Shown: piece after piece, positions 3,296-18,762 of the stretch
How positions within the stretch are numbered: the first letter of the stretch is position 1
Layout of the letters: the number at the start of each line of letters is the position of its first letter
Assembly: GCA_963815115.1 (NCBI GenBank)
Contig: CAWFFN010000007.1
Location: forward strand, 1,088,001 to 1,152,000
DNA from: an uncultured delta proteobacterium
Lineage (GTDB): Bacteria; Desulfobacterota; Binatia; DP-6
Length of the DNA: 64,000 bases
Direction of reading: 5' to 3'
The notes under the pieces: generated by a model
What the model saw: the letters and a program-made list of their open reading frames with translations, nothing else
What the model was told of the DNA's origin: nothing
Databases searched by the model: none
Made by a program: the position numbers and the translations under genes

Positions 3296-3542
3296 AGCTG
3301 CCGCGGGACCTATCGGGTCCCGACCTGGCGAAGGTGTTGCGTAGCCTCGGCTACAAGGTCACCCGCGCCAAACCGGAAGCCACATGCGGTTGACCACCAC
3401 GCAGCGCGGCGAGCATCACGTCACCGTACCTGGCCACGGCCCGCTCAGCGTCGGGACACTCGCCGGCATCCTCGCTGACGTGGCCGCCCACTTCGAGATG
3501 AGCCGCGATGACCTGATGATGAAGCTCTTCGGCGGGAACTGA
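3292..3542 (+). pseudogene. hicA: HicA family toxin, frameshifted (extra GC at ~3367)
   Basis: Removing 2 nt gives MKLPRDLSGPDLAKVLRSLGYKVTRQTGSHMRL...HHVTVPGHGPLSVGTLAGIL..., with the HicA GSH motif; may be an assembly error. Confidence 0.85.
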
Positions 3543-3588
3543 CAGCGGACTTCGCACTGTCCGCGGGACTCGGGCGACTCGGGACCGA

Positions 3589-3633
3589 AAGTGCGCCCAG
3601 GCTGATTCGAACAGCCGACCTTCTGATTCGTAG
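3589..3633 (-). repeat. tRNA-Arg 3'-half copy 3, distal att site of the 15 kb element
   Basis: 43/45 identical to 18686-18730; the two differences are a compensatory T-stem base pair. Confidence 0.95.
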
Positions 3634-3685
3634 CAGGAAGGTCGGCCGCACACTTCCCGCTGGAAAGTCACGCGCTTCGCGCCGC

Positions 3686-4879
3686 TCAGGCGTCGCCGCT
3701 TGCAGCGCCGCTTGCAACCAGCGCCGCCAGCCGATCCGCTGCCGCCGGATCGCGGTCGCGAATCCAGCTCCCGTAGACGTCGATCGTCACCCGGATCGAG
3801 CTGTGTCCGAGCTGCTGCTGCACCCACTGCGGCTTCGCCCCGGCGAGCAGGTGCAGGGTGGCGAACGAGTGCCGCAGCGCGTGCGGCGAGAACGGGGCGG
3901 GCTCTCCCGTTGCCATGAACCCGGCCTTCACGAGCACCCGGGCGAAGTCGCGCTCGACGTTCCGCTGGCTGAACGGCGTGCCGTTGCCCGTGACGAACAG
4001 CCACGGCGGCACGGGACGCCAGCGCCGGCCCATCGCGAGCGCCGGGCGCTTCGCCTTCACGTCCGCGAGCACGGCGATCAGCTCCTCGCTGAGGTCGATG
4101 GTGCGCGCGCGACTCGTCTTCGTGGTCCCGGGCATCGGCCGCCGCGGACTCGAGTCCTGCCCGAGCGACCGGCGGACGTCCCCTTCCCGCTGGTCGAGGT
4201 GGAGATCCTCGAGCTGCCAGCCGAGCAGCTCGCCGAGGCGGAGCCCGGTATGGGCGCCGGCGAGGTAGAGGCCGTGCAGCCGCGAGCACCGCTCCGCCAT
4301 CGCGAGGAAGCGAGTGAGCTGGTCCTGGTCCATGGCCTTCACCCGGTCCTCGCCGTCCGGGTCGGCCTCGAACTGCTTGCGCAACGTCTTGCCGGGGACG
4401 GCGACGGGGTTGAGTGCGATCAGCTCGTCCTCGGCCGCCTCATTCAGCAGCGCGCGGAGGGCGGCGAACATCAGGCGGACGCTGTCCGGGGCGTAGCCCT
4501 CCCGTCGCTTCGCCACGACGAGCGCCTTCACAAGGGGCCGCTGGATGTCGGCGAGCCGCAGATCCCCGAGCCGCCGGCCCCGCACCACGAAGGGCAGGAC
4601 ATGCTGCTCGAGGAGCGCCTGATAACTCGCGCGCGTCCGCGGCTTCCAGGTCGCCGCATTCGCCTCGAGCCAGAGCGCCGCATAGGCGGCGAGCGTCTGT
4701 CCCGGATCGCCCACCGGATGCAGCGTCACCTTGGGCGTCGCGTTGACGACGGCCTGCCGTGCCTCGGCCTCCGTCTTCGTGGCGTAGAACTCCTGCCGGC
4801 GCTTGCCATGGGCGGTCGTGAACTCGACCTTCCAGCGGACCGCGCCGTGGTTGTGGACCTTGGTCGGCTTGCCGGTCAT
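3686..4879 (-). CDS. int: Tyrosine recombinase / phage integrase
   Basis: TGLRLGELLG (R), TTKT (K), HALRHSFAT (HxxR), LGHS and DVY (Y); N-terminal arm-binding region; abuts the att site. Confidence 0.97.
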   Translation of the reverse strand: MTGKPTKVHNHGAVRWKVEFTTAHGKRRQEFYATKTEAEARQAVVNATPKVTLHPVGDPGQTLAAYAALWLEANAATWKPRTRASYQALLEQHVLPFVVRGRRLGDLRLADIQRPLVKALVVAKRREGYAPDSVRLMFAALRALLNEAAEDELIALNPVAVPGKTLRKQFEADPDGEDRVKAMDQDQLTRFLAMAERCSRLHGLYLAGAHTGLRLGELLGWQLEDLHLDQREGDVRRSLGQDSSPRRPMPGTTKTSRARTIDLSEELIAVLADVKAKRPALAMGRRWRPVPPWLFVTGNGTPFSQRNVERDFARVLVKAGFMATGEPAPFSPHALRHSFATLHLLAGAKPQWVQQQLGHSSIRVTIDVYGSWIRDRDPAAADRLAALVASGAASGDA

Positions 4880-5070
4880 CGCTTACCGCCGCGCGGGATC
4901 GTCGCGTCGGTGATGACGTACTTTATCAAGCGGACGACCCCCGCGGGGACGGCTACGGTGCCCTGCTCCCAGCGCCCGACCGTCCGGGGTGTCACGCCGA
5001 GGCGACGGGCGAACTCGACTTGCGTCCACTGCTGGCGCCGCCGGAGCCGGCGGACCTCCTGACTGGTCAT
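4876..5070 (-). CDS. XRE/Cro-type HTH regulator
   Basis: VRRLRRRQQWTQVEFARRLGVTPRTVGRWEQG; ATGA overlap with int. Confidence 0.85.
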   Translation of the reverse strand: MTSQEVRRLRRRQQWTQVEFARRLGVTPRTVGRWEQGTVAVPAGVVRLIKYVITDATIPRGGKR

Positions 5071-5284
5071 GCTGTCCAGTAGACACCATGTCCTGCCCGG
5101 TGTCCAGACGGCCCGCGAGGAAGGCCTCGAGGGCGGCCGGATGCACCCGGAAGCACTTGCGGCTCGCGATCAGCGCCGGAAGCCGGCCGGCGCGGATCAG
5201 CCGGCGCACCTCGCGCTCGCGGATCTGGAGCACCGCCGCGACCTGGGCGGGCGTGAGCGCGTGCAGGTGCTCGGCGTCGGCCAT
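4883..5284 (-). CDS. Excisionase-like HTH protein (long C-terminal tail overlapping the XRE gene is doubtful)
   Basis: LTPAQVAAVLQIREREVRRLIRAGRLPA...FRVHPAALEAFL; AAGGAG RBS before ATG at 5284. Confidence 0.75.
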   Translation of the reverse strand: MADAEHLHALTPAQVAAVLQIREREVRRLIRAGRLPALIASRKCFRVHPAALEAFLAGRLDTGQDMVSTGQHDQSGGPPAPAAPAVDASRVRPSPRRDTPDGRALGAGHRSRPRGGRPLDKVRHHRRDDPARR

Positions 5285-5343
5285 CACTCCTTCGGGTTGA
5301 GGCGCGCGCGCCGGTGTCGAGCCGTCGCGCGCGCCGTCTCGTC

Positions 5344-5787
5344 TCAGTATTCGTCGGGGAGAAGCACTGTCGTCTGCGGACGACCACGACGATCCGTCAT
5401 CACCCACACCTCCTCGATGCCCGGCACGTCCGCATAGCTGCTGTGCACCGTGGTGTAGGCACCATCGCGGTGCGCGATGGCCGACAGCGTGCCGGCGTCG
5501 TCCGTCGCGAAGCAGCCACGCCGCAGCTGATCGTCGGTCACCTCGATCGTCCTCACGTGACCGAACTTGCCGAAGTCCCCTTGCGCGTGCCGCAAGAGCC
5601 AGGGGGTGAGGACGCTCGCGACGGGCTTGAATCCCTGCCCGTGCAGTCCGAGCGCCGTGACGACCCCTGGTGTCACCACCACCGGCCCGAGGTGCACGAA
5701 GTCGACGACGCTGCTGAAGATGAACTGCACGCCACCCTCGTCGATGAGGTCCTGCACGCTCCCGAACTCGAACTCGATCGCTTCCAT
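5344..5787 (-). CDS. Plasmid/ICE-related hypothetical protein
   Basis: LGPVVVTPG...LLRHAQGDFG...VWVMTD...TTVLLPDEY resembles a family common on mobile elements. Confidence 0.65.
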   Translation of the reverse strand: MEAIEFEFGSVQDLIDEGGVQFIFSSVVDFVHLGPVVVTPGVVTALGLHGQGFKPVASVLTPWLLRHAQGDFGKFGHVRTIEVTDDQLRRGCFATDDAGTLSAIAHRDGAYTTVHSSYADVPGIEEVWVMTDRRGRPQTTVLLPDEY

Positions 5788-6008
5788 GTCTGCCTCCCTA
5801 GTGAGCCCCGCGTCCTCAACGCGGGGGCTGGCCGCGGCCGGCGCCGCGGGCGTGGTGGTGGTGGTGCGGCAGGACCAGCAGCGCAGGTCCAGATCGCCAC
5901 CGGCCGGGGCGATCAAGACGCCGCAGCTCCGACAGGGCACCCGTCGGACGACGTCCCCAGTGGACGGCCAGACGCCGATGTCGCTCCGGGCGATGTCATC
6001 CGGGCGCA

Positions 6009-8384
6009 TCACGGCACGAACCCGCCCTTGGGCGGCCAGGGCGTAGGCGTACCAGCCGAGATGACGGTGACCGGACCGAAGATCTCGACGACGGTCTGGA
6101 GAGCAGCCTTGTCCGCCGCCAACGTCGCGGCCATGTCGTCGACGACATCGTCGGGCCCATCGACGAGGAGCTTGTCCCCGTCGATGTCGATGAGGATCTC
6201 GTCGGGATCCGGCTCCCGGTCGCAGCCGGCGCACTCGAGAGAGCCGCAGGTCACGCAGGCGAGGCGGACTCGATTCCCACTACCCCCTACCCCTGGGGAA
6301 GTAGAAAACGCCGGGAAGCGGGAAGCCGATTTTGACCCCTTCTCTCCCAAGGGTTTCCGCTCCGTTTCGCTTCCCGCCCTTGTGTCGCATGGCCGGGAAG
6401 CGGGGGTGCTCGCTGCGGCACGACTGGCGCGGCTTCCAGGATCCGCTTCCCGCTTCCCGGCTTCCCGCTCACTTCTCCCGACCACGACGGTGGGGTGCCC
6501 CGCCCGCATCAGATCCTTCACCAAGGACCAGGCGCGCCCGTCGTGCTCGTCGAGCAGCGCACGAGCCCGGTTCCGAGGGGCGCCCGCATCCTGGAGGACG
6601 GCGCCCGCCTCGCCCAGGGTGAGCGGCAACTCCGTGGCCTTCGCCCGACGGTCCACCTCGGCCACGAGGGTGGCGACAAGCTTGGCCTCAGCCTCGGCCC
6701 GTTCGGCGGCCGCCTGCGCCCGGGCGGTCTCGCCGGCCGCGTGGAGCTCCGGAGTCACCTCGCGCAGCGACCAGGGCTCGGCGCCGAGGGAGATCTCGAG
6801 GGCGAACGGCTCCGGCTCCTCCCCGACCCGGAACTTCGACGGGATGAAGGCGAGGACGTAGCGGTCCCGCTTCGTGCGGCGCGTGGCCCGCTCGGCCCAA
6901 TCGGCCCGGCCAGCCGCTGGCAACTCGGTCCACCACTCCTTCGTCCCGCTCGGCTGAAAGCCGGTGGCGTCCCGCACCTCGTAGGCGATGTCGGCTCGGT
7001 CCTCGATGACGCCGCTCCCCCGCCCGTGCGAGCCGCTCTTGATGGTGTTGCCGAGGACGAGGATCGCGGGGCCGCCAGCCCGATGGACGATGTCGAGCAG
7101 CGGCGCGATGGCCTTCGCCGGCTTGCTGGAATCCTGCTCGCCGATGCCCTCGGTGCTCGCGTCCAAGCTGTCGACGATCACGAACGCATAGGTGCCGAAC
7201 GGGAACGTCCGCCAGGCCGCGGCGTCAGTGAGCGGCGGGACCTCGTCGCGGGTCATCACTTTGAGCGTGGTGAGATCCGCAGCCCCCCAGGCACGCAGCC
7301 GTCGCCGGATCTCCCGCTTCGCGTTGTCGCGGTCGAGCAGCAGGACCTCCTGCCCCTTCCGCGCCAGCTCGATGGCGAAGGCGTACGAGACGTGAGTTTT
7401 TCCCAGACCTCTCGGTGAAAAGAAGTTGGTGAGCGAGCCCTGGCTGAGGACGCGGGGGATGAGCCAATCGAGTGCGGGATCATCACCGGCAAGAAATTCG
7501 GTGGCCGGCACAGCCCTGCTCCAGATGTTTCCCGACGAGCCGGCACCCGTGAACGAGGTGCCGGTGTCGAACGTGTCGGGCCCGAACCAGCTCGCGAGCT
7601 TCTCGAGGACGGGGGCACCCACCAGCTCGGCCACGCGAGGGCCGCCGGTCGCCTGGCCGCCCCGGGCGAGTCGCTGCGCCGTCGTGAGCACGTCCCGCAC
7701 GCGGTCGCGCGTCTCTTCGTCGCCGGCCACCCCCGCTGCCGCCCCGACGATTGTCTGCACGACCTCCACGGGCACGGCGCGCCGCAAGAGATACCCCGCA
7801 GCGGCAAGGGCAAGGTGGTGCCGCACCCCGACCTCACGCGGCCAGATCCGCGCGAGCAATGCGGTCACCGCGATGGACCGCACGGCGGCCACGAGTAGCG
7901 CGGTCGGCACCACGGCCGGGGTCCGCGGCTCGCCCTCGAACGCGATGACGTCGCCGTTCGGATGCACGGATGGCGGCCACACAGTCTGTGAGCGGGTCGA
8001 GAGCATCTCGACGAGCATGTCGGTGCGCTTCGTGACGGGATCCTGCGGGGCGGTGAACTTCGTCGTCGGCGGCGTCGGGATGCACCGATACAGCCAGTGC
8101 GACCGCGGCTTCCCGGGTCGTCCGAAGACGAGCGGCGTCGGCGACAGGAACAGCGCCGCGACGGCAACGGCTTCGGGCGCGTCGAGGTCGACGTCGACCA
8201 GGCCGCCCGACGGGTCGCCGTTCAGGACACCGACGTTGCTGTCCGGATGGAAGCGGCCGACAGACTCCTCGGTGTGGCGCTCGTCTGGCCAGTGGTCGCG
8301 GCCCGGATTCTTGGAGCCGCGGGGGATCTCGATCGGTGCGAAACCGGCGGCCAGGTACCGTCGGGCTGCTTCGATGGCGGTCAT
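6009..8384 (-). CDS. Bifunctional primase-polymerase fused to an AAA/RecA-like helicase
   Basis: N-terminal AARRYLAAGFAPIEIPRGSKNP, NVGV, LVDVDLD, HWLY, VWPPSVHPNG; Walker A SPRGLGKT; Walker B VIVDS. Confidence 0.9.
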   Translation of the reverse strand: MTAIEAARRYLAAGFAPIEIPRGSKNPGRDHWPDERHTEESVGRFHPDSNVGVLNGDPSGGLVDVDLDAPEAVAVAALFLSPTPLVFGRPGKPRSHWLYRCIPTPPTTKFTAPQDPVTKRTDMLVEMLSTRSQTVWPPSVHPNGDVIAFEGEPRTPAVVPTALLVAAVRSIAVTALLARIWPREVGVRHHLALAAAGYLLRRAVPVEVVQTIVGAAAGVAGDEETRDRVRDVLTTAQRLARGGQATGGPRVAELVGAPVLEKLASWFGPDTFDTGTSFTGAGSSGNIWSRAVPATEFLAGDDPALDWLIPRVLSQGSLTNFFSPRGLGKTHVSYAFAIELARKGQEVLLLDRDNAKREIRRRLRAWGAADLTTLKVMTRDEVPPLTDAAAWRTFPFGTYAFVIVDSLDASTEGIGEQDSSKPAKAIAPLLDIVHRAGGPAILVLGNTIKSGSHGRGSGVIEDRADIAYEVRDATGFQPSGTKEWWTELPAAGRADWAERATRRTKRDRYVLAFIPSKFRVGEEPEPFALEISLGAEPWSLREVTPELHAAGETARAQAAAERAEAEAKLVATLVAEVDRRAKATELPLTLGEAGAVLQDAGAPRNRARALLDEHDGRAWSLVKDLMRAGHPTVVVGRSEREAGKREADPGSRASRAAASTPASRPCDTRAGSETERKPLGEKGSKSASRFPAFSTSPGVGGSGNRVRLACVTCGSLECAGCDREPDPDEILIDIDGDKLLVDGPDDVVDDMAATLAADKAALQTVVEIFGPVTVISAGTPTPWPPKGGFVP
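6296..6466. repeat. GGGAAGC iteron cluster, candidate replication origin
   Basis: Forward copies at 6313, 6320, 6395; reverse copies at 6369, 6445, 6452, 6460; degenerate copies at 6296 and 6432. Confidence 0.6.
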
Positions 8385-8444
8385 GGAAAGGTACCTTCTC
8401 GGCCCGAGCCGGCGCACAAGACGCCAGCCCGGGCCGCGTTCGCG

Positions 8445-8915
8445 TCAGAAGGGGATGTCGGTCTCCGGCGGCGACGCCGGAGCCTGCGGTGATGCTGTCT
8501 GCGGTTGCGGTGACGGCAAGAGCTTGGTGATCCGTGCGAAGGATTGGCCAGGCTTCTTCGTCGACGGGACGTATTCGATCAGCGCCTGGCACTGGCGGCC
8601 GAGGAACATGCCGCTCGTGATGTTCTGCCCGTCGGCCGGGATGTGGACTCCGAGCGCCCGGCAGATCGCGCCGAGGTTCGACTTCTCGTGCGTCGAGAAG
8701 TTTGTCATGAGCTTGAAGGTCCCTTCGCCCGCGTGGCCGATGGGGACGATGTCGAAGACGAGCTTCTGTTCCGGCTCGTCTGACTGGTACTTCGTGCCTT
8801 GCTTGGTCGTGACGTCCACGACCTCGACCGGGTACACCCCAGCCGGCTTGGTCCAGTCGATGAAGCCGCCGCTCTCGGCGCGCTTTGCCTTTCCGAGGAT
8901 CTGGTCCTGTGCCAT
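8445..8915 (-). CDS. SSB-like phage replication protein
   Basis: PAGVYPVEVVDV N-terminus, acidic SSB-type tail ETDIPF, RBS AAAGGAG, upstream of the primase. Confidence 0.7.
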   Translation of the reverse strand: MAQDQILGKAKRAESGGFIDWTKPAGVYPVEVVDVTTKQGTKYQSDEPEQKLVFDIVPIGHAGEGTFKLMTNFSTHEKSNLGAICRALGVHIPADGQNITSGMFLGRQCQALIEYVPSTKKPGQSFARITKLLPSPQPQTASPQAPASPPETDIPF

Positions 8916-8936
8916 CGACAATCTCCTTTCAGGTGG

Positions 8937-9273
8937 TCAGGTCGCGGACGACGATGTTGTGTGGAGCCAGCAGCCACCGGACCCGCGGCAGTGGCGAACG
9001 TAGCCCGTCGCCAAGATGGCCCTGGCCGCCTCCTGCACCGCCTCCCGCTTCCAGCGGCGCTCGTGAGCGAGCCGCAGCACGGCCCGAACCGTCCTCCGGT
9101 CGTGGTGCAGCGAGTACGCAGCCCGGATCTTTCGCGCTGCGATGTCCGGCAAGCTCGGGTCGGTGCCGAACTCTTCGACCGAAGTGCCGGACGTTCGCGG
9201 CGGCCTTAGCGCGCCGTTCGAGTGTCCAATCGCGGGAGTGGACGGGGGGAAAGTTGAACGCTAGAGTCGTCAT
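8937..9273 (-). CDS. Hypothetical protein with an apparent +1 frameshift at ~9180
   Basis: RBS GAGGAG and ATG at 9273; dropping one G joins MTTLAFN...RHF to VEEFGTDPSLPDIAARKIR... Confidence 0.45.
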
Positions 9274-9412
9274 GTCGATCGGTTCTCCTCTGTTCGGGTG
9301 ATGGCCGGACCGGCGCTCGACACGCCGGTCCTGGCCCCTGGACGAAGTGACGGGCCTGCGATTCCCGCCGACGGGGGACCGCGGATCACGACACCGGACC
9401 GGTGCGCGGCGG

Positions 9413-9604
9413 TCACGATGCCTCCTTGAGAAAGCTGGCGAGCTCCGAGCGCAGCCACCGCGGCCGCCCCGCCACCCGGCGCGGGCGTGGCAAGTCACCG
9501 CGGGCGACCATTCGATCGATGGTTGATCTCGAGAGCCGCCAGAGCCGGCACAAGTCGGCCGCGCTCAGCATCGCCAGGCTGTCGTCGTCGGGGTGCGTCG
9601 TCAT
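9413..9604 (-). CDS. alpA: AlpA family HTH regulator
   Basis: LSAADLCRLWRLSRSTIDRMVARGDLPRPRRVAGRPRWLRSEL. Confidence 0.85.
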   Translation of the reverse strand: MTTHPDDDSLAMLSAADLCRLWRLSRSTIDRMVARGDLPRPRRVAGRPRWLRSELASFLKEAS

Positions 9605-9645
9605 GGTGACGCCCGCATACACCCGCGACTCGCACCCACCGAAAA

Positions 9646-9685
9646 TGCGTGCTACGCAAACCCCCGCAGAATCCTCGATTCTGCG
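9646..9685. promoter_or_regulatory. Palindromic operator candidates in the divergent switch region
   Basis: TGCGT-gct-ACGCA (9646-9658) and perfect CGCAGAATC-ctc-GATTCTGCG (9665-9685) between alpA and the divergent gene. Confidence 0.45.
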
Positions 9686-9699
9686 TTCGCACTCACAGC

Positions 9700-10572
9700 A
9701 TGCGACGAGACGAAGGCTACTGGAGCGCCGTGGCGCTGGTGGGGTTTGCCAACCTGCCCATCACCCGCGCCACGTGGCGCAGCCTCTGGGGCGCGTGGGG
9801 CTGGCCATCCTCGCCGCCGCTCCGGACGCCGGCGCGCCGGCGCTGGGACGCGCGGATGGTCGGGCTCGCGCGAACGGGACGCGTGGACGAACTGCAGCGG
9901 GCGTATCGAACCGAACTGAGGCGGTACGGCGATGAGGGCCGCCGCGCGTCCCTCGACCCGGCCGACTGGGTGCGGGGGCTGCCGGAAACCCCCGTCGATC
10001 TCGAGGGGCGGGTGGCGCTCATCGACCGCTCAGGCGACCTCTTCATCGACCCACCGACGACCCGGCGCGTCGGCGTCGTCCTGGCGGTGCACCAGGCGGC
10101 GGGGGACCGCCTCGCGACCATCATCGCCGGCAAGCCACAGGCACTCTACAGCCTCTGCACCGCGCTCATCCGCGTGCCGCTCGGCACGGGGCTGGCGGTG
10201 ATCCGCCATGTCGGCTCGGACGGCCTGCAGGCCGAACCACCAGCCGACGAGACAGAGTCGCTCGCCGCGTGGGTCGACGGCCTCTTCCTCCGTGCGGCCC
10301 GCGCAGGCTTCTGGCCACGGTTCTTCACCTGCGCGACCTGTGGGCGGTTCACCGTCGGGCGACTCCGGCGGGCACGCTTCTGCAGCAGCCGGTGCCGCGC
10401 CCGGGCGCACCGGAAACAGCATCCCAGGTCGCAGCCCGGGGCTGCGATCCGTGCCGCGGTCGAGACGCTCCGCCGGCAGGGGGTGCGCGCCGACACGGCG
10501 GTGGCACGGGTCGCGCGGCAGTTCGGTTTTCCCGAAGCCGCCGTCTGGCAACTGACAGCCCGGCACTCCTGA
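9700..10572 (+). CDS. CGNR-type zinc-finger protein, putative regulator
   Basis: CATCGRF...RARFCSSRCRARAHRK followed by an HTH-like tail. Confidence 0.65.
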   Translation: MRRDEGYWSAVALVGFANLPITRATWRSLWGAWGWPSSPPLRTPARRRWDARMVGLARTGRVDELQRAYRTELRRYGDEGRRASLDPADWVRGLPETPVDLEGRVALIDRSGDLFIDPPTTRRVGVVLAVHQAAGDRLATIIAGKPQALYSLCTALIRVPLGTGLAVIRHVGSDGLQAEPPADETESLAAWVDGLFLRAARAGFWPRFFTCATCGRFTVGRLRRARFCSSRCRARAHRKQHPRSQPGAAIRAAVETLRRQGVRADTAVARVARQFGFPEAAVWQLTARHS

Positions 10573-10624
10573 GTGGCCAGGAGTGCACATCTTAACTTAA
10601 CGTCGGGCGAGTGGCTCGCTTCCT

Positions 10625-11362: not shown

Positions 11363-11524
11363 CGAAGGGATCGCGCTACTGCACCGGCCCCGTCGCGCTC
11401 ACCAGATCGCCCGCCGCCTCCAGCTCGTCGAGGAGCTGCGCCGCCTCGGCCTCGGGCACGCCGAGCAGCTCGGCCACGAGGGCATCGGCACGATGTCCTC
11501 GGGAAGCCAAGCGAGGGCGGCTAG

Positions 11525-13176
11525 CCCGGATAATTCACGCCCGCCAGCGTGAAGAAGCCACCGGACCCCTCGAAGTGTGCTATTGACGCGGTTGTCGAGG
11601 CCAGCGTCGAGCACGCTGAGGAGGGGTGGCGGTGGCTGCAGAGTGTCATAGTCGATTCGGCTTCGCTTTCCAACGGAAGCTCACGGCTGCGTTCGACGGC
11701 GGCGAGATCACGACCGAGGCGGGGCTGCTCCTTGTTCGGGAGTTCGACGAGCGGTTGGGGCTGACGGCGGCCCTCCGCGACGCGGTGGCGGATGAGCGGG
11801 ACCGGCGCTACGTGACGCACGACGTCCTCACGCTCCTGCGCCAGCGCCTCTACCAAATCGTGGCCGGCTACGAGGACGCCAACGACGCCACGACCCTGCG
11901 GCACGATCCCGCGCTGCAGAGTGTCGTCCACCGGCTCGGGACGCCGCTCGCGTCGCAGCCGACGCTCTCGCGCCTCGAGAACGCGGTGGAGTGGGACACG
12001 ATCCGACGCCTGGGCACCGTCCTGCGCCAGTGGTTCACCCGGCACGGGGTCTCGCACCTCGAGCCGCCCGGGGAGGTGATCCTGGACCTCGACTCCACCG
12101 ACGACCCGACGCACGGGCAGCAGCAGCTCAGCTTCTTCAATGGCCACTACGACGAGCACATGTACCACCCGCTGCTCGTCTTCGCCGACGGCTATCTGCT
12201 CGGCGCGCGGTTGCGCCCCGGCGACGTCGGCGGTGCGACGCATGCCTGGCCGCTGCTCGAGCCGATCATCGCGCATCTGCGCGCGCAGCTGCCGACCACC
12301 GGGCTCGCCCTGCGGGCCGATGGCGGCTTCTGCAACCCCGACCTGCTCGATGCGGCGGAGCGGGCGGGGCTCACCTACGCGATCGGCATGGCCCCCAACC
12401 CCAGGCTGGACGCGGCCGTCGCGCTCCACCGCGTCCACGCCCACGTCACGTATGAACGCACCGGCCGCCCGGTGCGGTGGTTTACGAGCGTTCACTACCA
12501 GACGCGCAGCTGGGCACGGCCACGGCGCGTGCTCGCGATGATCGAGCACACCGCCCAGGGCCCGAACGTCCGCTACGTGGTCACCAACCGCCGCGGCCGG
12601 GCGGCCGAGATCTTTCACTGGTACCACCAGCGCGGGCAGGCCGAGAACTTCATCAAGGAACTCAAGCGCGATCTCGCCGCCGATCGACTGTCGTGCCACG
12701 CCTTCCGCGCCAACGCGTTTCGCCTCCTGCTGCACGCGCTCGCCTACGACCTGCTCCAGCTCTTCCGCCAGCGCGTGCTCGCCGGGACCGCGCTCGCGAG
12801 CGCGACGCTGGGCACGGTGCGCCTGCGGCTGCTCAAGCTCGGCGCGCGCGTCGTGCGCTCCGTCCGGCGCTGGTGGTTCCACTGCGCCTCCGGCTGGCCG
12901 GGGCAGCCCCTCTTCCTCGTCGTCCATCGCCGGCTCCGCATGCTGCGTGCGTCGCCCTGACGGCTTGGGCGCGCCGCACACCTCGGAGCTGCTCCTCGCC
13001 GCGGTATCCGACCCCGCTGCGCCGCGGTGTGGTTGCCGCCCGCCAGTGCACGCCGCTTGAGCCCGCCACGAGCCGCGTCGCCGCTCGCGAGGCCCGCGGT
13101 CACGGCACCCGAATCCGTCGCGGGCGATCAGCCCGTCATCCGCCCTGGGTGACTGGCACTTCATGAATGATCCGGG
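11525..13176 (+). mobile_element. IS1380 family insertion sequence
   Basis: TIRs CCCGGATAATTCAC / CCCGGATCATTCAT (12/14); CTAG on both flanks (11521-11524, 13177-13180); 1652 bp. Confidence 0.92.
11626..12960 (+). CDS. IS1380 family DDE transposase
   Basis: FDGGEITTEAG, LASQPTLSRLEN, LDLDSTDDPTHGQQ, LRADGGF, YHQRGQAENFIKELK, FRANAFRL. Confidence 0.96.
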   Translation: MAVAAECHSRFGFAFQRKLTAAFDGGEITTEAGLLLVREFDERLGLTAALRDAVADERDRRYVTHDVLTLLRQRLYQIVAGYEDANDATTLRHDPALQSVVHRLGTPLASQPTLSRLENAVEWDTIRRLGTVLRQWFTRHGVSHLEPPGEVILDLDSTDDPTHGQQQLSFFNGHYDEHMYHPLLVFADGYLLGARLRPGDVGGATHAWPLLEPIIAHLRAQLPTTGLALRADGGFCNPDLLDAAERAGLTYAIGMAPNPRLDAAVALHRVHAHVTYERTGRPVRWFTSVHYQTRSWARPRRVLAMIEHTAQGPNVRYVVTNRRGRAAEIFHWYHQRGQAENFIKELKRDLAADRLSCHAFRANAFRLLLHALAYDLLQLFRQRVLAGTALASATLGTVRLRLLKLGARVVRSVRRWWFHCASGWPGQPLFLVVHRRLRMLRASP

Positions 13177-13230
13177 CTAGGCCGGCGTCGTGCGCATGGG
13201 TGGGGTCGGCACGATGGACGTCCAACGCTG

Positions 13231-14070
13231 TCAGCTCTCCGTCGACCCGAAAGTCGAGAGTCCCGCCTCGGCTGCCAGCAGCTTCCACATATCTGGAGGG
13301 TTGAACATCATTGGGCGTGCGAAGTTCCCTTCAAGTGCGGTGAGAACCTTCATCCAAGTGGCCGTTGTAATCTCGCACATCTTCACCCTCCTTACGATTG
13401 CCTTCGATTCTGACGATGGGATGACGACCCCGAACCACGGTGGGTCGTCGAACGTAGCCGCGATAGCCGCCTGCCCACGCCAGCCATGAAAGCCGCAACG
13501 ACGCTCCGTTCCCGTCGCCCCATAAGACGCGCTGAAGAGCATCTGTCCGAAGAAGCAGAGACCACGCCTGGGATCAGACTGTGCTCTCAGACTCTCTACT
13601 TCACGCCGGAACAATTCGATGATGTCCTCCGCGCGCTCAACGTCCAGGATGCTATACCGGTGCTCAACGGCGTTCCTGTCGTCAATTGCCCTGGCCAAGA
13701 CGCGTTCCGCTAGCTCGTCGATAATCCGCCGTCTGACCAACACTTCGCTCTTCTGGTCTGATGTCGCCGGCGCGTCTCGGCAGAATGCGAAGCCATCTCG
13801 CCGAAGGTACCAGTCCACAAGAGAGCCCAGACCCCGCCGGGCATTCGTGACGGCGTTGACTGTGTGCCGGTGCTTCCTACCTGAATCGACCTCGCTGCGA
13901 GCTTGCTGAATCTCGGCGACGGCCCACTGCAAATACTGCCCGTCATCGATTTGTCCCGGGGAAGTCCAGGTAAGCCCCGTCGCCTCGTGCCCGCTGAGCG
14001 TGCCAACGGCACTCAATATGTCAGCGGGGTCGAGCGGTTCGAAGCTGCAAACGCCCTTGGTCACGTCCAT
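13231..14070 (-). CDS. HEPN-motif cargo protein, candidate defence RNase
   Basis: Helical N-half with NAVTNARRGL and an RxxxxH motif RNAVEH; visibly lower GC than the flanks. Confidence 0.6.
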   Translation of the reverse strand: MDVTKGVCSFEPLDPADILSAVGTLSGHEATGLTWTSPGQIDDGQYLQWAVAEIQQARSEVDSGRKHRHTVNAVTNARRGLGSLVDWYLRRDGFAFCRDAPATSDQKSEVLVRRRIIDELAERVLARAIDDRNAVEHRYSILDVERAEDIIELFRREVESLRAQSDPRRGLCFFGQMLFSASYGATGTERRCGFHGWRGQAAIAATFDDPPWFGVVIPSSESKAIVRRVKMCEITTATWMKVLTALEGNFARPMMFNPPDMWKLLAAEAGLSTFGSTES

Positions 14071-14189
14071 CCCGGGTCACTCCTCACCTAGTCCGTTTGC
14101 TCTTCCTCCGGGCGCTCGGCGCTGCCAGCACGGGGGCGTGAAAACCGGGGGAGGCCGTCCTCAGCCGACGAGGCTATAGAGTTCTTGAG

Positions 14190-14450
14190 TCATCGCGGAC
14201 CGACTTGAACGTTGAGGCTGCGACTGTTGCCGTAGACGGCGGCCCGGCACCCTGCCGGATCGCCGCCCTGACGGATGCAGCTATCAACGTCCGCAGCCTG
14301 GCGTTCGCGAGCGCGAGCTTCGGCCTCGCGACGTGCGCAGTAGGGGCTGTTGTGAATGCCTGCGATGCGAGAGCCCTCGTCGCCGCAAGGGACCATGCAG
14401 CCCGCCAAGCCGACTACTGCGGTGAGGCACGCGCGCGACAACAGGCGCAC
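14190..14450 (-). CDS. Small lipoprotein
   Basis: Lipobox LAGC after a hydrophobic stretch; Cys pairs. Confidence 0.5.
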   Translation of the reverse strand: MRLLSRACLTAVVGLAGCMVPCGDEGSRIAGIHNSPYCARREAEARARERQAADVDSCIRQGGDPAGCRAAVYGNSRSLNVQVGPR

Positions 14451-14624
14451 GCTTGATGGCTACCAATGTTCCCCTAGTTCTTCAAGGTGGGGCGCCGAGG
14501 CGACCCGCTCCCAACCCCGACGGCACCGCGTCCCTGTCACGCTCCCAGGACGTGCGGGCGCGGGGCCGCCGGGTTCACGTCACCGCCGCGGCCGCCCCCC
14601 GCCCGCCAGCCGCGCGCCCTCGTA

Positions 14625-14951
14625 TCAGTCGAAGGCTCCCGCGACCGTCAGGTCGGCCAGCTCGGTCAAGTGCACGCGGACGGCGTCCTCAAGGTCTCGA
14701 TGCACTTGCGCCCCATCGATCCCCCAGCCCGCGGCGAGGACCGCCGCAACCCGGGCTGGCCAATTTAACCAGGCATCGCGATAGCCCTGCGCGGCATTCC
14801 TCACGACGCGCGTGACGGTCGCGATCTCGGCCAACTCGCCGCGGCGACGGCGCACCTCGAGCTGCCGCAGATCAGCTAACGCCGTCTCCTTGCGGCGCCG
14901 GGCCGCCTCGAGGCTCTCGCCGGGAGCCTGTTTCCGCCCCGCCCCGCTCAC
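14625..14951 (-). CDS. Terminase small subunit-like protein, C-terminal (oligomerisation/TerL-binding) part
   Basis: SLEAARRRKE...RRGEL...RDAWLNWPARVAAVLAA...LEDAVRVHLTELAD resembles Nu1-type TerS C-termini; GTG start overlaps the upstream TGA. Confidence 0.7.
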   Translation of the reverse strand: MSGAGRKQAPGESLEAARRRKETALADLRQLEVRRRRGELAEIATVTRVVRNAAQGYRDAWLNWPARVAAVLAAGWGIDGAQVHRDLEDAVRVHLTELADLTVAGAFD

Positions 14952-15253
14952 TCGTCGTCGTCGGTGTTCCACTCCGCCCCCGCGGCATCGGCCCGGCGCA
15001 CGAACTCCCGCCAGATGTAGTCTGACACCTCGGTTTCTGGATCGAGCCACGGCCGAAACTCCCGCGCGCGGCCGGGCCGCTGGAGGGTGCCCAAGGTATT
15101 GCCGCGCCAGTCCTCCAGCACCCCCACCGCGTCCCACCGCCCATCCTCCTCCCGGGTGATCGTTCCGCGAGCCTCGGCCTTCGCAATCGCCTGGCGGGCC
15201 ACGCCCAGGATGGCGGCGAGCTGGCTGTCAGTGTCGACGAAGGCGCGGGACAT
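14948..15253 (-). CDS. Terminase small subunit-like protein, N-terminal winged-HTH part
   Basis: SQLAAILGVARQAIAKAEARGTI...GRWDAVGVLEDWRGNT, Nu1-like DNA-binding domain. Confidence 0.65.
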   Translation of the reverse strand: MSRAFVDTDSQLAAILGVARQAIAKAEARGTITREEDGRWDAVGVLEDWRGNTLGTLQRPGRAREFRPWLDPETEVSDYIWREFVRRADAAGAEWNTDDDE

Positions 15254-15386
15254 CGGGGTTACCGCTCATGCCGGTCGCTCCGGGTGCCGGACCCGGGGGG
15301 ACCCTGTGAGAAACCGCAGGCTTCGTTCGCCATGTCATCAGGAGGTGCAACCCCGATTTTGGGGGTGAAATCTAGGCCAACGCTGC

Positions 15387-15430
15387 CCCCCGACGCCCCG
15401 CTCCGCCTCCACTTCATTCCCAGGACCCGT
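15387..15430 (-). other. Lambda-like cos packaging site (cosQ plus cosN-like)
   Basis: Minus strand ACGGGTCCT-N21-CG-GGGCGTCGGGGG versus lambda ACGGGTCCT-N21-CG-GGGCGGCGACCT (lambda recalled from memory); ~135 bp upstream of terS. Confidence 0.65.
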
Positions 15431-15575
15431 GACCGCTAACTACGAATCCGCGGGGCATGGCGGGGCGTTGACCGCTGATCGGGTAGGTTACGGCCGCACG
15501 GTAGACTGCGAGTCAAACGCGCTTTCGACGAGGATTCGGTCAGGCAGGAGGGCAGGTGGGTGCCGCGTTGGTGCT

Positions 15576-16034
15576 CTACTGGAAGAACCCCTCGCAGTAG
15601 TAGGCGCCGAAGTAGATCCCGCGGTAGTCGACCACCGCGGCGTTCTCCCCGTGCACGGGCTCGTAGAGTGCCGTGTCGGGCTCCTTCTCGGAAGCCAGCA
15701 TCGCGAGTCCCACCGGGACGTTCACCAGGCCATCGGTGAACCGCATCACCCCAGCGGCGACGTTGAGTATCGTGCAGGAGGCGATGTACGCACCGAACAT
15801 GACGGGTGTCAAAAGGACCTTCTGCAGTGGCGGTTGCTTGCCATTGACGTAGAACTTCCGCACGAAGGTCGAGCTCGCGGTATACGGGGAGAGGGCAAGG
15901 TCGAGGGGCGTTCCGACGAGGTCCATCGCGCCTCGCGCGAGCGTGTCGGTTTCCGCCCACACCGGGCCGGTCCATGCCAGTGCCGTGGCCAGCAGCGCTG
16001 CGGTTGCGGTCCGTCGTGCCGGTCGCATCCCCAT
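15576..16034 (-). CDS. Secreted/membrane hypothetical protein
   Basis: Signal peptide ending PVWA; amphipathic helices (LARGAMDLVGTPLDL...GVMRFTDGLVNV). Confidence 0.6.
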   Translation of the reverse strand: MGMRPARRTATAALLATALAWTGPVWAETDTLARGAMDLVGTPLDLALSPYTASSTFVRKFYVNGKQPPLQKVLLTPVMFGAYIASCTILNVAAGVMRFTDGLVNVPVGLAMLASEKEPDTALYEPVHGENAAVVDYRGIYFGAYYCEGFFQ

Positions 16035-16157
16035 GGTGGCCCTTTTTTGGACGCCACTTCGAGTCGTGACGTCGGGTGCCCCTACGGCTTCGGCTGTTTA
16101 GTCGAGACGTGTGCGCCTCGTCAAGTAGGCGATTTACCGCTGCGCGCGCCTTCCGGC

Positions 16158-16379
16158 TCAGGGCGGCTCCGTGCGGTTCGATCGATGCGGACGCGATCGG
16201 TGCTCCGGTGCTCCCAGCGCCCATTGTGGTCGGTCAAGGCCAATAAGTGGCGGCCGGTGTCGCGACCTCGGCCTCCAGCGCCGCCAGGAGCATGCGGCGG
16301 GCACCCTCTCGCTCCTCCGCCCAGCGCGCCTCGATCGACGGAGCCAGTTCTGCCAGAAGGCCGGGCCGAACAGATCCAT
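16158..16379 (-). CDS. Hypothetical protein
   Basis: ATG 7 nt after the upstream stop, last gene of the operon; reading frame uncertain. Confidence 0.3.
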   Translation of the reverse strand: MDLFGPAFWQNWLRRSRRAGRRSERVPAACSWRRWRPRSRHRPPLIGLDRPQWALGAPEHRSRPHRSNRTEPP

Positions 16380-16385
16380 GCCGCG

Positions 16386-16922
16386 CTACCGCGCGACCTC
16401 CGGGGCGAACAATACGGCCGGGTCGCAATCCGCGCGCCGGTCTATCGCCTGGCCGCGGCGCTCCGCCTCGACGATCAGCGTCTCCTCCTGCAGCGCCAGG
16501 TCGCGCACCGTCTCCCGCAGGGCCTCGAGACGTGCAGGGCGGTCGGCCATAGGCACCGCCGCACGCGACAGCTCGGGATCGGCCGCGTAGATCGCGTGGA
16601 GGCGCGCCCGCAACGCCGTGAGGAGTGCGTCACGATGCACCCTGCACTCGTAGGCGGCGGCGCGCTGCGCATCGTACTGTGCATCCGGCAGAAGGAGTTG
16701 CACCGTCCCGAGATCCCCGCCGCCTGGGCGGGTAAAAGATGCGAGCACCCGATCGGGATCGTAGAGACTGGCCAGGCGATCGACGCCGGCGACCAGACCG
16801 GCCTCGGCTTCGTCCAGCGGCAAGGGCGCGCGGTCGAGTGCGGCAAGCTTCGCCTCTGTCGTGCGGATCAACTCGCGCAGTTGTTCGAGGCCCATCGTGC
16901 CGAAGCGGCTCTTCGATGCCAT
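16386..16922 (-). CDS. Helical hypothetical protein of the satellite operon
   Basis: RBS AAAGGAG; coiled-coil character. Confidence 0.7.
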   Translation of the reverse strand: MASKSRFGTMGLEQLRELIRTTEAKLAALDRAPLPLDEAEAGLVAGVDRLASLYDPDRVLASFTRPGGGDLGTVQLLLPDAQYDAQRAAAYECRVHRDALLTALRARLHAIYAADPELSRAAVPMADRPARLEALRETVRDLALQEETLIVEAERRGQAIDRRADCDPAVLFAPEVAR

Positions 16923-16933
16923 CGCGTCTCCTT

Positions 16934-17398
16934 TCAGACGCCCAGGTAGCGACGGGAGCGCTCGGCGATCTGGCCGAGACGGTTCGAGCGTTCCTGCGCC
17001 AGGTCACGCTCGCAGGTGAGTCGGGCGAGCTCGGCCGTCGTCTCCTCGAGGTCGCGCGCGAGGTCGTCGAGGTTGTCCCCAATCGCTGGCTGCCAAGTCT
17101 TGGCAGTCGGGCCTTTCGAGCGGTCGGGCACCCATTGCCCGGGGTGCAAGGTCGGATGCGTCGCGCGCAGCTCCTCGAGGCGCCGAGTGAGGCGCTGCTC
17201 CTCGTCACGCAGCGCCCGCGCCTGGTCGTTGAGGGTGCGGGCGCGCACGCGGGCGACCTCCGCGTCCGTCTCGAGGGCTTCCAGCTTCCGCCGCACCGCG
17301 GCCGGCAGGGCCTGGCGGGCGCGCCGAGCGCCGCCCGGGACCGTCACGGGCCCGAGCCGCGTCGCAGCGGCGGTCTCGCCGGCATTGGCGTCGGTCAT
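16934..17398 (-). CDS. Coiled-coil hypothetical protein
   Basis: RBS AAAGGAG; heptad-rich sequence. Confidence 0.7.
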   Translation of the reverse strand: MTDANAGETAAATRLGPVTVPGGARRARQALPAAVRRKLEALETDAEVARVRARTLNDQARALRDEEQRLTRRLEELRATHPTLHPGQWVPDRSKGPTAKTWQPAIGDNLDDLARDLEETTAELARLTCERDLAQERSNRLGQIAERSRRYLGV

Positions 17399-17399
17399 G

Positions 17400-17702
17400 T
17401 CACTCTCCTTTCGGCGTCATCGTGGGAGCGTCCGCACGTCGTGCCGGGTGAGAAACTCCGCGCGCAGGGCCCGCCGCGAGGTCGCCTCTAACCACCGGCG
17501 GGCGCACCCACATCGCGGCGTCGCGCCAAGCGGCGTCCGGGATCCCCGCGCGCTCGAGGAGCGCGTCGAGCTCGTCGGGCTCGCGGGCCCCGTGCACGAG
17601 CAGGCCGCGCACGAAGCTCAAGATTTCGCCGGGACGGCCGAGCGGCGCGCTCCGGGCAGCGTGGGCGAGGCCGACCAGGTCGCGGACGCGCTCGGGGGTC
17701 AT
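17400..17702 (-). CDS. Hypothetical protein
   Basis: ATGA overlap with the upstream HTH gene. Confidence 0.5.
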   Translation of the reverse strand: MTPERVRDLVGLAHAARSAPLGRPGEILSFVRGLLVHGAREPDELDALLERAGIPDAAWRDAAMWVRPPVVRGDLAAGPARGVSHPARRADAPTMTPKGE

Positions 17703-17905
17703 CCCGCCGCCCCTTTCGGGACCCGGCGGGTGTGCTCGAGCCAGGCTTCGACATCCGAGAGGCGCACGCGAGCCCAGCCGCCGGCATCGTAGATTTCGAG
17801 CTCACCGCGCTCCGCGGCCTGAAAGAGCAAGTGCCTGCCGACGCCGAAGAGCCGGGCGGCTTGCCGGACCGTGACCAGGCGCTCGACCGCCGGGGTGGCG
17901 TCCAT
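17699..17905 (-). CDS. Second excisionase/MerR-like HTH protein
   Basis: LVTVRQAARLFGVGRHLLFQAAERGEL...RVRLSDVEAWLE. Confidence 0.8.
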   Translation of the reverse strand: MDATPAVERLVTVRQAARLFGVGRHLLFQAAERGELEIYDAGGWARVRLSDVEAWLEHTRRVPKGAAG

Positions 17906-17913
17906 CCAGCATC

Positions 17914-17943
17914 AGCTTAGCTAATATGCACCTGGAGCGTCAA
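17914..17943 (-). promoter_or_regulatory. Sigma70-type promoter of the 17905-16158 operon (near-leaderless)
   Basis: TTGACG-N18-TAAGCT ending 8 nt before the ATG. Confidence 0.5.
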
Positions 17944-17980
17944 GAAGTGGCGCGAATGGATGGACGATACGCGGATGCCC

Positions 17981-18523
17981 TCAGGAGAGGGGAGCCTGCA
18001 GGACGGCGGGCGTCTCGCGGCGATCGATGCGCACCAACGCCGTGCGGGCGAGCGTTCGATGCCGGGCCCAGTCCGCAGCGGGGATATACTGGTCCCAGTC
18101 GATGCCGATCATCGCAGGTACGAATTGCACGTAGCGAATCCACCGCGCCAACCAGCGCAGGCTCGGTAAGGCGCTCTCGGCGTCCACTGCCGTCGCTTCT
18201 CCCATGCTCGGCGCGAGTGCCAGAAGCTGGTCGATGTCCTCGTCCGTCCAGACGAGCGCCGCACGAATCCTCGACTCGTCTCGGCTCTCGGGAAGGTTCC
18301 CGACGAGGACTTCGAGCCGCCCGACCACGCTGCAGAAGCGGAGCCGCTGGGCGCGGGTGGCCTGTCGTTGCCGCTCGGCCTCGGCGCTCGCGGCCGAGGC
18401 CAGCGTTTTCGTCAGGCGCACGTAGTTGACCGTCACGCCGACGAGCACCCCCGTGAGGAGGACGGATGCGATGGCCGCGAGCGCCTGCACCTCCAGGGCG
18501 TGGTCGTGAATCCAACCCAGCAT
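17981..18523 (-). CDS. Membrane-anchored hypothetical cargo protein
   Basis: N-terminal TM (ALAAIASVLLTGVLVGVTVNYV) followed by a helical domain; RBS GGAGG. Confidence 0.65.
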   Translation of the reverse strand: MLGWIHDHALEVQALAAIASVLLTGVLVGVTVNYVRLTKTLASAASAEAERQRQATRAQRLRFCSVVGRLEVLVGNLPESRDESRIRAALVWTDEDIDQLLALAPSMGEATAVDAESALPSLRWLARWIRYVQFVPAMIGIDWDQYIPAADWARHRTLARTALVRIDRRETPAVLQAPLS

Positions 18524-18688
18524 GCCGACCCTCCTGCGCGAACGACCGCAGCCTTAAACGGCACACTCCTCGCGCGCGAGATCCGCTTGCAACCCGCTTG
18601 CAAGCGAACGCGTCAGAACTGGTCTCTGGCGGTCGCTACCAGTGCGAATCGGTCAGGTGAAGTGCCCGGATTTCCAGGCACTTCCAAG

Positions 18689-18762
18689 TGCGCCCAGGGT
18701 GATTCGAACACCCGACCTTCTGATTCGTAGTCAGACGCTCTATCCAACTGAGCTATGGGCGC
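18689..18762 (-). tRNA. tRNA-Arg(ACG)
   Basis: GCGCCCATAGCTCAGTTGGATAGAGCGTCTGACTACGAATCAGAAGGTCGGGTGTTCGAATCACCCTGGGCGCA; full cloverleaf, CCA not encoded. Confidence 0.97.

Follow-up and report, generated by a model that had tools for sequence, protein, structure and literature searches.

Phage-inducible chromosomal islands (PICIs) related to the Staphylococcus aureus pathogenicity islands (SaPIs) encode a small terminase subunit (TerS) without a large one (TerL), and this TerS directs the TerL of the helper phage to the island DNA. We analyzed a 64-kb stretch of DNA (70% G+C; contig CAWFFN010000007.1, positions 1,088,001 to 1,152,000), referred to below as the window, from an uncultured soil bacterium of the Binatia whose genome (6.89 Mb, 12 contigs, 100% complete) carries, on contig C7, an integrated island with a TerS of its own. 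A first-pass annotation made from the letters of the window had proposed that this island is a satellite of a lambda-type cos phage. The island is most likely a phage satellite, because it brings genes for integration and replication and a small terminase but none for a virion shell. More specifically, we hold at about even chance that it is a PICI-like satellite of a lambda-type phage, from which it would borrow TerL, capsid, and tail. The EF-Tu of the host is closest to proteins named Candidatus Binatia; among 120 matches listed, those at 95-96% identity were named Candidatus Binatia (two), Candidatus Eisenbacteria (one), and "bacterium" (one), so that placement by this protein is tentative.

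In the sections of PMC10085698 available to us, the presence in PICIs of an island-encoded small terminase without a large one is given as a general statement, and the PICI core list has five components, including an integrase, regulation of the alpA/merR/stl type, a primase-replicase, a small terminase, and capsid morphogenesis. In that work, >99.9% of the PICIs found came from Proteobacteria and Firmicutes. In Gram-negative PICIs such as EcCICFT073, Rpp is a small stand-alone TerS-like protein with a winged helix-turn-helix (HTH) that pairs with the lambda-type TerS and redirects packaging to the island cos (PMC6739421, available in part). Our literature search found no paper linking phage satellites or prophages with Binatia.

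Comparison of the island with described satellites

Genes of the window were called from third-position G+C (G+C3) and frame plots. The island spans 15,053 bp (3634-18686), or 13,382 bp without an insertion sequence (IS), lies 3' of a tRNA-Arg(ACG) gene (18688-18762, minus strand; ARAGORN and Rfam, 72.2 bits), and is flanked by 44-nt core repeats. The proximal copy of the att core (18687-18730) corresponds to the 3' 44 nt of the tRNA gene on the minus strand. The distal copy (3590-3633), beside int, is identical to it at 42 of 44 nt, and the two mismatches, located in the T stem, are complementary to each other. The predicted att repeats thus do flank the island, although they measure 44 nt instead of 45. 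Pairs of CCGCTTGCA copies on the plus strand, which may be arm-type integrase sites, lie on the inner side of the distal core (3696-3716) and of the proximal core (18583-18602). These four copies, all at the two island ends, are the only ones in the window, for a chance expectation of 0.58, and none of 100 shuffles reached four. Since the CCGCTTGCA copies look like arm-type integrase sites, the recombination module formed by cores and arm repeats appears intact. The integration site is empty in two congeners, in which the tRNA gene is present with a single core copy and no island genes within 19 kb.

Nearly all island genes are on the minus strand and run in the direction from the tRNA gene to int. 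The co-directional distal operon comprises an AlpA-type HTH_17 gene, orf71, orf158, the Prim-Pol/AAA_25 gene, orf221, xis, xre, and int, with several start/stop overlaps. The int-xre-xis set, the Prim-Pol/helicase, and the alpA gene of the first-pass annotation were all recovered. The tyrosine integrase has 397 residues (3686-4879, minus; PF00589, E 1.9e-21; phrog_1, E 2.7e-61), and it is preceded by a 64-residue XRE-type HTH regulator (4876-5070, minus; HTH_31, E 1.2e-9; HTH_3, E 2.6e-9) and by an excisionase-type HTH_17 protein (xis; 5087-5284, minus; HTH_17, E 4.5e-11), whose open frame formally extends to position 4883, across xre. The replicase is an 802-residue Prim-Pol primase fused to an AAA_25 (RepA/DnaB-like) helicase (6009-8417, minus; PF09250, E 3e-10; PF13481, E 4e-14). 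Genes for AlpA-type HTH_17 proteins head both the replication operon (9413-9622, minus; HTH_17, E 3.5e-8; phrog_66, E 2.8e-9) and the tRNA-proximal operon, where the protein is of the excisionase family (17699-17905, minus; TIGR01764, E 8.8e-8; HTH_17, E 5.7e-6). The island contains three HTH_17 (MerR-like) genes in all, and the Phage_AlpA model itself matched only the sister element on contig C9 described below (E 8.8e-6). The prediction of a gene resembling a single-stranded DNA-binding protein (SSB) held in part. By language-model features only, orf158 (8445-8921, minus) is like the DUF669 phage clusters (similarity 0.95-0.96, 209-213 of 256 features shared) and would be a DUF669-like replication-module protein, possibly SSB-like, but no hidden Markov model matched it, and the DUF669 model had no match in the genome at E<=10. 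The last four residues of orf158 have what we take to be a resemblance to the tip of bacterial SSB.

The island has four of the five PICI core components of PMC10085698, as given in its available sections, and none of the virion parts forbidden there; no match to the fifth component, capsid morphogenesis, was found in Pfam, PHROGs, or NCBIfam, although an unrelated analogue may be present among the unassigned ORFs. Judged by the core list of that paper, the gene content of the island corresponds to PICI Type B, with which it shares a size of ~13-15 kb, att repeats, an integrase, an alpA/merR-type regulator, a primase-replicase, a small terminase, the lack of TerL, portal, tail, and holin, and the occurrence of several copies or remnants per genome. 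Unlike the PICIs described there, it has a Prim-Pol/AAA_25 fusion as replicase, a TerS made of two coupled genes, and no recognized capsid-morphogenesis gene; its int ends the replication operon in the same direction instead of diverging from it; and it belongs to an uncultured soil lineage and has no known helper. The placement of int last in the replication operon and the division of TerS into two pieces bear out the claim that the gene order differs from those of described PICIs.

No TerL, capsid, portal, tail, holin, head-tail connector, relaxase, or type IV secretion system (T4SS) was matched among the 26 candidate open reading frames (ORFs) of the island in Pfam, PHROGs, and NCBIfam, in agreement with the statement that recognizable capsid, portal, TerL, and tail genes are lacking. 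The same searches revealed no coupling protein or FtsK-like gene. VirB4 (PF03135) and TraG-D_C (PF12696) are absent from the genome. No hidden capsid or conjugation gene, which according to the first-pass annotation would have reclassified the island, emerged from these searches. The largest ORF without assignment has 307 codons, and none of the open frames is long enough for a TerL or portal protein (400-650 residues).

The island also differs from other classes of elements. The TerS of SaPIs is a single protein of another family and operates in headful (pac) packaging, whereas the island has a two-gene TerS whose relative in the phage locus inspected lies in a lambda-like module. Actinomycete integrative and conjugative elements (AICEs) and integrative mobilizable elements (IMEs) combine an int-xis module with a replication gene, in some cases a Prim-Pol, and are inserted at tRNA genes. 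The island shares int-xis and a replication gene at a tRNA with these elements but has a terminase small subunit instead of an FtsK/TraB-like translocase, a relaxase, or spread genes; the relaxase, coupling protein, T4SS, and FtsK-like translocase that would place it among integrative and conjugative elements (ICEs), AICEs, or IMEs are all missing. It also differs from capsid-forming PICIs, as it has no capsid, portal, head-tail adaptor or connector, or TerL of its own, and no ORF long enough. With P4-like satellites it shares only int and an AlpA-type HTH, none of the 26 ORFs having a PHROG or Pfam match to the psu-delta-sid operon, epsilon, or the alpha primase. The PICMIs of Vibrionaceae, compared here by their abstract-level description (PMC10803314), are likewise small satellites with a reduced gene set and no capsid-remodeling genes, but they are smaller and come from another host group.

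The small terminase and its upstream block

The TerS-like pair of the first-pass annotation is real: both orf101 (14948-15253, minus) and orf108 (14625-14951, minus) match phrog_57, the terminase small subunit family. The match of orf101, the predicted DNA-binding (winged-HTH) half, covers profile positions 15-76 (E 2.6e-4), and that of orf108, the predicted core half, aligns residues 8-103 with positions 82-174 of 199 (E 3.4e-18), so that the two proteins jointly span positions 15-174. The GTG start of orf108 overlaps the stop of orf101 as GTGA, and the G+C3 values of the two genes are of the coding type (0.82 and 0.87). The most plausible reading of these alignments is that orf101 and orf108, as coupled genes, jointly encode a single small terminase. 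Among 50,697 phage records, orf108 had 15 matches, 12 of which are annotated as terminase small subunit, the other 3 being unannotated Ralstonia records. In the one phage locus inspected, that of Rhodobacter phage RcKemmy, TerS is followed by a 668-residue TerL, a lambda gpW-like protein, a portal protein, and a capsid-protease fusion, a gene order that, by annotation, is that of a lambda-like head module. By sequence, the TerS of the island belongs to the family used by phages with such modules.

The AlphaFold2 (AF2) model of orf101 had a predicted local distance difference test score (pLDDT) of 85.6. The best match in a structural search was a viral packaging-motor chain (7lxs_A; Z 5.5, root mean square deviation 1.6, 49 aligned residues), followed by RppC of an E. 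coli PICI (6hn7_A; Z 5.1). In a second comparison, the N terminus of lambda TerS came first (6hn7_B; Z 4.8), and excisionases and MerR regulators followed at Z 4.4-4.0. The chains of 6HN7 were identified from the available part of PMC6739421. The likeness to Rpp, which includes the length of ~100 residues and 26% identity to RppC over 54 residues, is limited to the level of a common fold, and the island differs from the Rpp systems of PMC6739421, as described in that part, by the addition of a TerS-core gene after the DNA-binding gene, so that it may not need the TerS of a helper at all. The comparison with lambda-type (Nu1) TerS has the same bounds, the winged-HTH match being tied with those of excisionases and no TerL gene being adjacent in the island. 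For orf101, Foldseek searches of the PDB and BFVD libraries yielded nothing at E<=0.001, and the best hit of a sequence-profile search of the PDB had an E value of 0.097. There was no Pfam match for orf108 and no Pfam Nu1 match at E<=1.

The orf101 family has 16 other members among 5.8 billion proteins, all of 58-119 residues, stand-alone, and with the same end point, in a search limited to lengths of 55-177 residues, which fused forms could have escaped. Since the stand-alone form of ~100 residues is common to these 16 proteins, the split of the island TerS is probably not a recent break.

The genome has three orf101-type genes, and each is preceded by a conserved noncoding block of ~90 bp, which in the island (15341-15429, minus) lies ~90-175 bp upstream of orf101. 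The core of the block, with a small hairpin (15350-15371), is found at these three positions and nowhere else in the 6.89 Mb. In phage lambda, cos sits just upstream of the small-terminase gene, and a packaging site would therefore most naturally be sought in the block at 15341-15429; the appearance of an orf101 operator would be no different. The cos-like site of the first-pass annotation, for which no coordinates had been given and no helper is known, was not confirmed, and this block is the candidate for it. The third orf101-type gene (L006 10036-10377; G000:C9:406045-406338), 71% identical and with its upstream block kept, has respiratory and transport genes as neighbors, and the vicinity contains no further gene of the island.

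In the genome as a whole, phrog_57 matches 11 places, at some of which the match is confined to the HTH. Two matches outside the island (loci L144 and L145) extend beyond the HTH. One (G000:C8:223012-223485) is a full-length ORF of 213 codons beside an IS110/IS621-like gene; the other (G000:C9:1787608-1788061) is divided between two reading frames and adjoins an FAD monooxygenase gene. Neither locus is a prophage; no recognizable phage surrounds them, and two large neighboring ORFs have no relative in the PDB. The combination of several small terminases and no large one in this genome fits satellites and their remains.

A putative satellite life cycle and its alternatives

If the island is a satellite, helper infection or an SOS-type signal would switch on the HTH_17 regulators, Int and Xis would excise the island, and the primase-helicase, aided by the DUF669-like protein, would amplify the resulting circle. 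The DNA-binding half (orf101) and the core half (orf108) of TerS would then assemble and recruit the gpA-type TerL of the helper to the island's own packaging site, for which the ~90-bp block described above is the candidate, and helper capsids would be filled with island DNA. Exclusion or defense may be the role of the lipoprotein, of the secreted protein, and of the HEPN-like cargo. The assignment to a satellite of a lambda-type cos phage is thus upheld in part: four of five PICI core components, TerS relatives annotated as such in 12 of 15 cases, and the lambda-like module of RcKemmy speak for it, whereas no helper, no cos site, and no sign of excision or packaging was found.

Several further results weigh against a satellite. 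A search of the host genome for a helper, as recommended by the first-pass annotation, was negative: no TerL, HK97 capsid, or portal gene is present anywhere, with no match to PF03354, PF03237, PF05876, PF05065, or PF04860 (including TerL_ATPase, Terminase_6N, GpA_ATPase, HK97 capsid, and portal) in this genome and none to PF20441 or PF17289 (TerL_nuclease, Terminase_6C) in this genome and four congeners; the five TerL families tested genome-wide were all absent. No capsid-morphogenesis or interference gene was recognized in the island by Pfam, PHROGs, or NCBIfam. The fold match of orf101 is unspecific, lying within ~1 Z unit of excisionases and MerR regulators in model-based comparisons, and is a hint, no proof. 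TerS is in two frames, and phrog_57 positions 175-199 are uncovered. The phrog_57 profile is promiscuous at E<=0.01, with matches in 11 of 14 control genomes, presumably via its HTH, and the other phrog_57 genes of the genome are orphans beside an IS110-like or a monooxygenase gene. Relatives of orf101 were not found in viral contigs, nor were orf101 and orf154 found in other genomes of the order or in a sample of the phylum. The IS in the island is a sign of decay, and the family may be decaying in this genome, since the sister element on contig C9 has apparent frameshifts in int and in the primase gene and is missing the half that orf108 represents. Parts of the island are present as short contigs (depth 2-5; listed joints with sides of 20-39 letters) in three soil metagenome runs from a single study, and no RNA run was listed with it; the three runs contained no excision or circle junction, a result that says nothing on excision either way.

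The same signs of decay underlie the first alternative, according to which the island is a dead or dying remnant of a satellite or prophage, reduced to a cargo-carrying chromosomal island in which the genes for lysogeny, replication, and TerS have survived. This would account for the IS1380-family element and the foreign patch of lower G+C adjoining it, for the xis frame running on across xre, for the two-frame TerS, for the damage to the sister element, for the two leftover att copies next to the island (see below), for the orphan TerS-like genes, and for the lack of a helper in the genome. However, all core ORFs of the C7 island are open, have coding G+C3, and are coupled by start/stop overlaps; the two att cores and the four arm repeats show no damage; and the IS lies between genes of the cargo region and has hit no core gene. 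The stand-alone form of orf101 in 16 other proteins and the occurrence of the capsid-less layout in two copies differing by 20-30% in DNA also argue against recent breakage. We regard a remnant as unlikely, although it is to be taken seriously; were it correct, the island would be an ordinary genomic island with some cargo.

We consider it rather improbable that the island is a self-replicating integrative element that moves without phage capsids, through mobilization by a conjugative element, vesicles, or transformation, with the TerS-like pair acting as DNA-binding regulators or as an anti-phage decoy. The fold of orf101 is indeed that of a general MerR/excisionase winged HTH; a NikA-like match in the sister element is weak (E 7e-6, below the cutoff); and islands of many types contain primase-helicase modules of this kind. 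In addition, orf221 (5344-6009, minus), a protein with a zinc ribbon, a C-terminal domain, and no assigned function, the start of which overlaps the primase stop, has a weak language-model lead (0.81 only) to DUF3768, a domain common on plasmids and ICEs, and no Pfam, PHROG, or PADLOC match. Against this explanation stand the lack of a relaxase, coupling protein, VirB4, or FtsK-like gene in the island and of VirB4 and TraG-D_C in the genome, and the match of orf108 to the non-HTH core of TerS (E 3.4e-18), with phage relatives annotated as TerS and found beside TerL in the inspected locus. Moreover, terminase or capsid genes were found near the helicase in 5 of the 8 loci (3 viral contigs and 5 genome loci picked by taxon and similarity, out of 110 loci with a related helicase) that were scanned with Pfam, indicating that the replication module keeps phage company. 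It is very improbable that the island is a small temperate phage or a capsid-forming satellite with virion genes too divergent to be recognized, since, although ~12 ORFs have no family match and the phages of this lineage are unsampled (the literature on Binatia prophages and satellites returned only unrelated papers), only 13.4 kb are available without the IS, the largest unassigned ORF, of 307 codons, is too short for a TerL or portal gene (400-650 codons), and orf178 is a confidently modeled small all-alpha protein without a virion match.

Returning to the satellite reading, we tentatively extend it, with appreciably less confidence than we place in the reading itself, to the proposal of a new satellite family. 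This family of an uncultured soil phylum would have a two-piece lambda-type TerS, intermediate between satellites with a whole TerS and those with an Rpp-like mimic; the 90-bp block would be its private packaging site; and the TerS-only loci without TerL would record repeated parasitism of unseen lambda-like phages. A new family had been suggested as a possibility by the first-pass annotation. Two copies share the layout, but both are in one genome, and the other relatives are 16 unplaced metagenome proteins. As the lineage is known from metagenomes only, such a candidate, if convincing, would extend the satellite life style to further hosts and provide a handle on the unseen phages of the lineage, whose TerL must fit the TerS family of the island. 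A TerS that is naturally divided into DNA-binding and core parts would also be useful for studying packaging specificity. The main interest of the island lies in its split terminase, in the TerL-less genome with several TerS loci, and in the lineage.

Cargo, sister element, and related loci

The tRNA-proximal operon consists of orf180, the HTH_17 gene at 17699-17905, orf100, orf154, orf178, and orf152. The orf180 product (17981-18523, minus) is a membrane protein with a hydrophobic N-terminal helix read directly from the translation and no family match. The orf100 (17400-17702, minus) and orf154 (16934-17398, minus) products have copies in the C9 element that are 38% and 72-75% identical, respectively. 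The first-pass description of a coiled-coil operon applies to orf154, which has weak coiled-coil matches only, but not to orf178 (16386-16922, minus), which has a confident all-alpha fold (AF2 pLDDT 95.7) and is no plain coiled coil. The unnamed family of orf178 has 170 representatives at E<=1e-3, some members being fused to an N-terminal part of ~150 residues. No consistent Pfam or PHROG family emerged among 67 members, each listed family matching 1 of 67. For orf178 itself, there was no viral fold match at E<=0.001, the best PDB match (Z 7.4) consisted of helical hairpins and was below the level meaningful for helical models, and no match was found in 50,697 phage records or 72,556 plasmids. 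The last gene, orf152 (15576-16034, minus), encodes a secreted protein with a signal peptide, recognized by direct reading of the translation, and has no family match. In the distal operon, orf71 (8937-9152, minus) is supported by its G+C3 frame and has no family match or assigned function.

The predicted cargo is present between the two operons and comprises orf307, orf245, a copy of an IS1380-family element, orf279, and orf86. The orf86 product (14190-14450, minus) is a small Cys-rich lipoprotein (lipobox LAGC) whose gene has 94% nucleotide identity to its C9 counterpart; at the protein level, the mature parts of the two do not differ (100% identity) despite six synonymous changes. The orf279 gene (13231-14070, minus) lies in a patch of lower G+C (0.63) and is absent from the sister element; its product has an R-x4-H motif and a weak HepT/HEPN match (PF01934, E 0.006, below the cutoff). 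The IS (11511-13181, plus), with its transposase gene at 11626-12960 (NF033539, E 1.4e-119), has a 99.9% identical copy on contig C12. The orf245 gene (10625-11362, minus) has a clear G+C3 frame and no family match. The orf307 product (9649-10572, plus) ends in a zinc ribbon, and its PHROG matches are confined to this stretch (residues 202-268); as there was no Pfam HNH match, assignment as an HNH protein was rejected. PADLOC identified no known defense system in the island, with only weak HTH matches (mad1) and one DrmD match (E 0.006).

The sister element on contig C9 (L005 4842-18430; G000:C9:1233842-1247430) has a size of 13.6 kb and is not located at a tRNA gene. It has in common with the island, in the same order, the primase (80% over the N-terminal half), orf86, orf101, orf178, orf154, orf100, and HTH_17 genes, and the two elements have the same capsid-less layout with 20-30% divergence in DNA. 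Its core repeat (25 nt) and its paired arm repeats (GTTCATGGACA) are different from those of the island, its integrase is unrelated, and a gene for an RRM-domain protein takes the place of orf152. A block including orf86 and ~170 bp upstream (14160-14621) is 94% identical between the elements, with flanks at 70-80%, which could be due to recent exchange or to strong constraint.

A third island, at tRNA-Arg(TCG) (L007; G000:C7:912001-932000), contains an integrase gene, an IS3-type insertion, a broken Prim-Pol/D5_N primase gene, an HTH_17 gene, and a stretch that resembles TerS-N but is interrupted by a stop. Beside it lie a bAvd-like gene and three genes with FGE-sulfatase domains, the usual company of a diversity-generating retroelement. 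Next to the C7 island, two partial copies of the tRNA-Arg 3' end, which belong to direct-repeat family D1, were found at 2443-2486 (the oldest copy in a tandem accretion; 74% over 58 nt) and at 2814-2857 and point to earlier insertions at the same site. Between the copy at 2814 and the island lies a gene pair, of which the first member (3080-3295) has no family and the second (3345-3542) belongs to the HicA toxin family (E 1.1e-6). By its appearance, the region from 2443 to 3589 is what is left of older tandem island insertions.

At E<=1e-5, 551 relatives of the primase-helicase were found; those nearest to it, at 65-78% identity, are located on short metagenome contigs. Its helicase core was found in metagenome-assembled genomes named Acidobacteriota, Methylomirabilota/Rokubacteria, Binatia, and others. 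Single-protein primase scans of genome, viral, and metagenome contigs gave no match, whereas alignment-based scans did. In tblastn searches of 103 loci with a primase or helicase match, the island proteins matched int in 20 loci, xre in 3, hth17b in 1, and IS1380 in 1, and no other island gene was found with this query set, from which orf108 was absent. Neither orf158 nor orf221 had a match in the 50,697 phage records. Among the loci scanned with Pfam, L107 has Terminase_2 only, L116 an HNH and a TerL gene, and the Binatia locus L093 just int, the primase-helicase gene, and one more gene. In L093, L091, L094, L107, and L116, the gene right after that of the primase-helicase encodes a TubC_N-like docking domain (E 1e-5 to 2.5e-13); the gene in this position in the island, orf221, is without that domain. 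L115 contains int, HTH_17, HK97 capsid, and helicase genes, and in both L115 and L053, which are on viral and metagenome contigs, the order is int, HTH_17, an HK97-type capsid gene, a small ORF, and a DnaA_N/AAA_25 helicase gene, as might be expected of a capsid-forming satellite or of a phage of very small size from another lineage.

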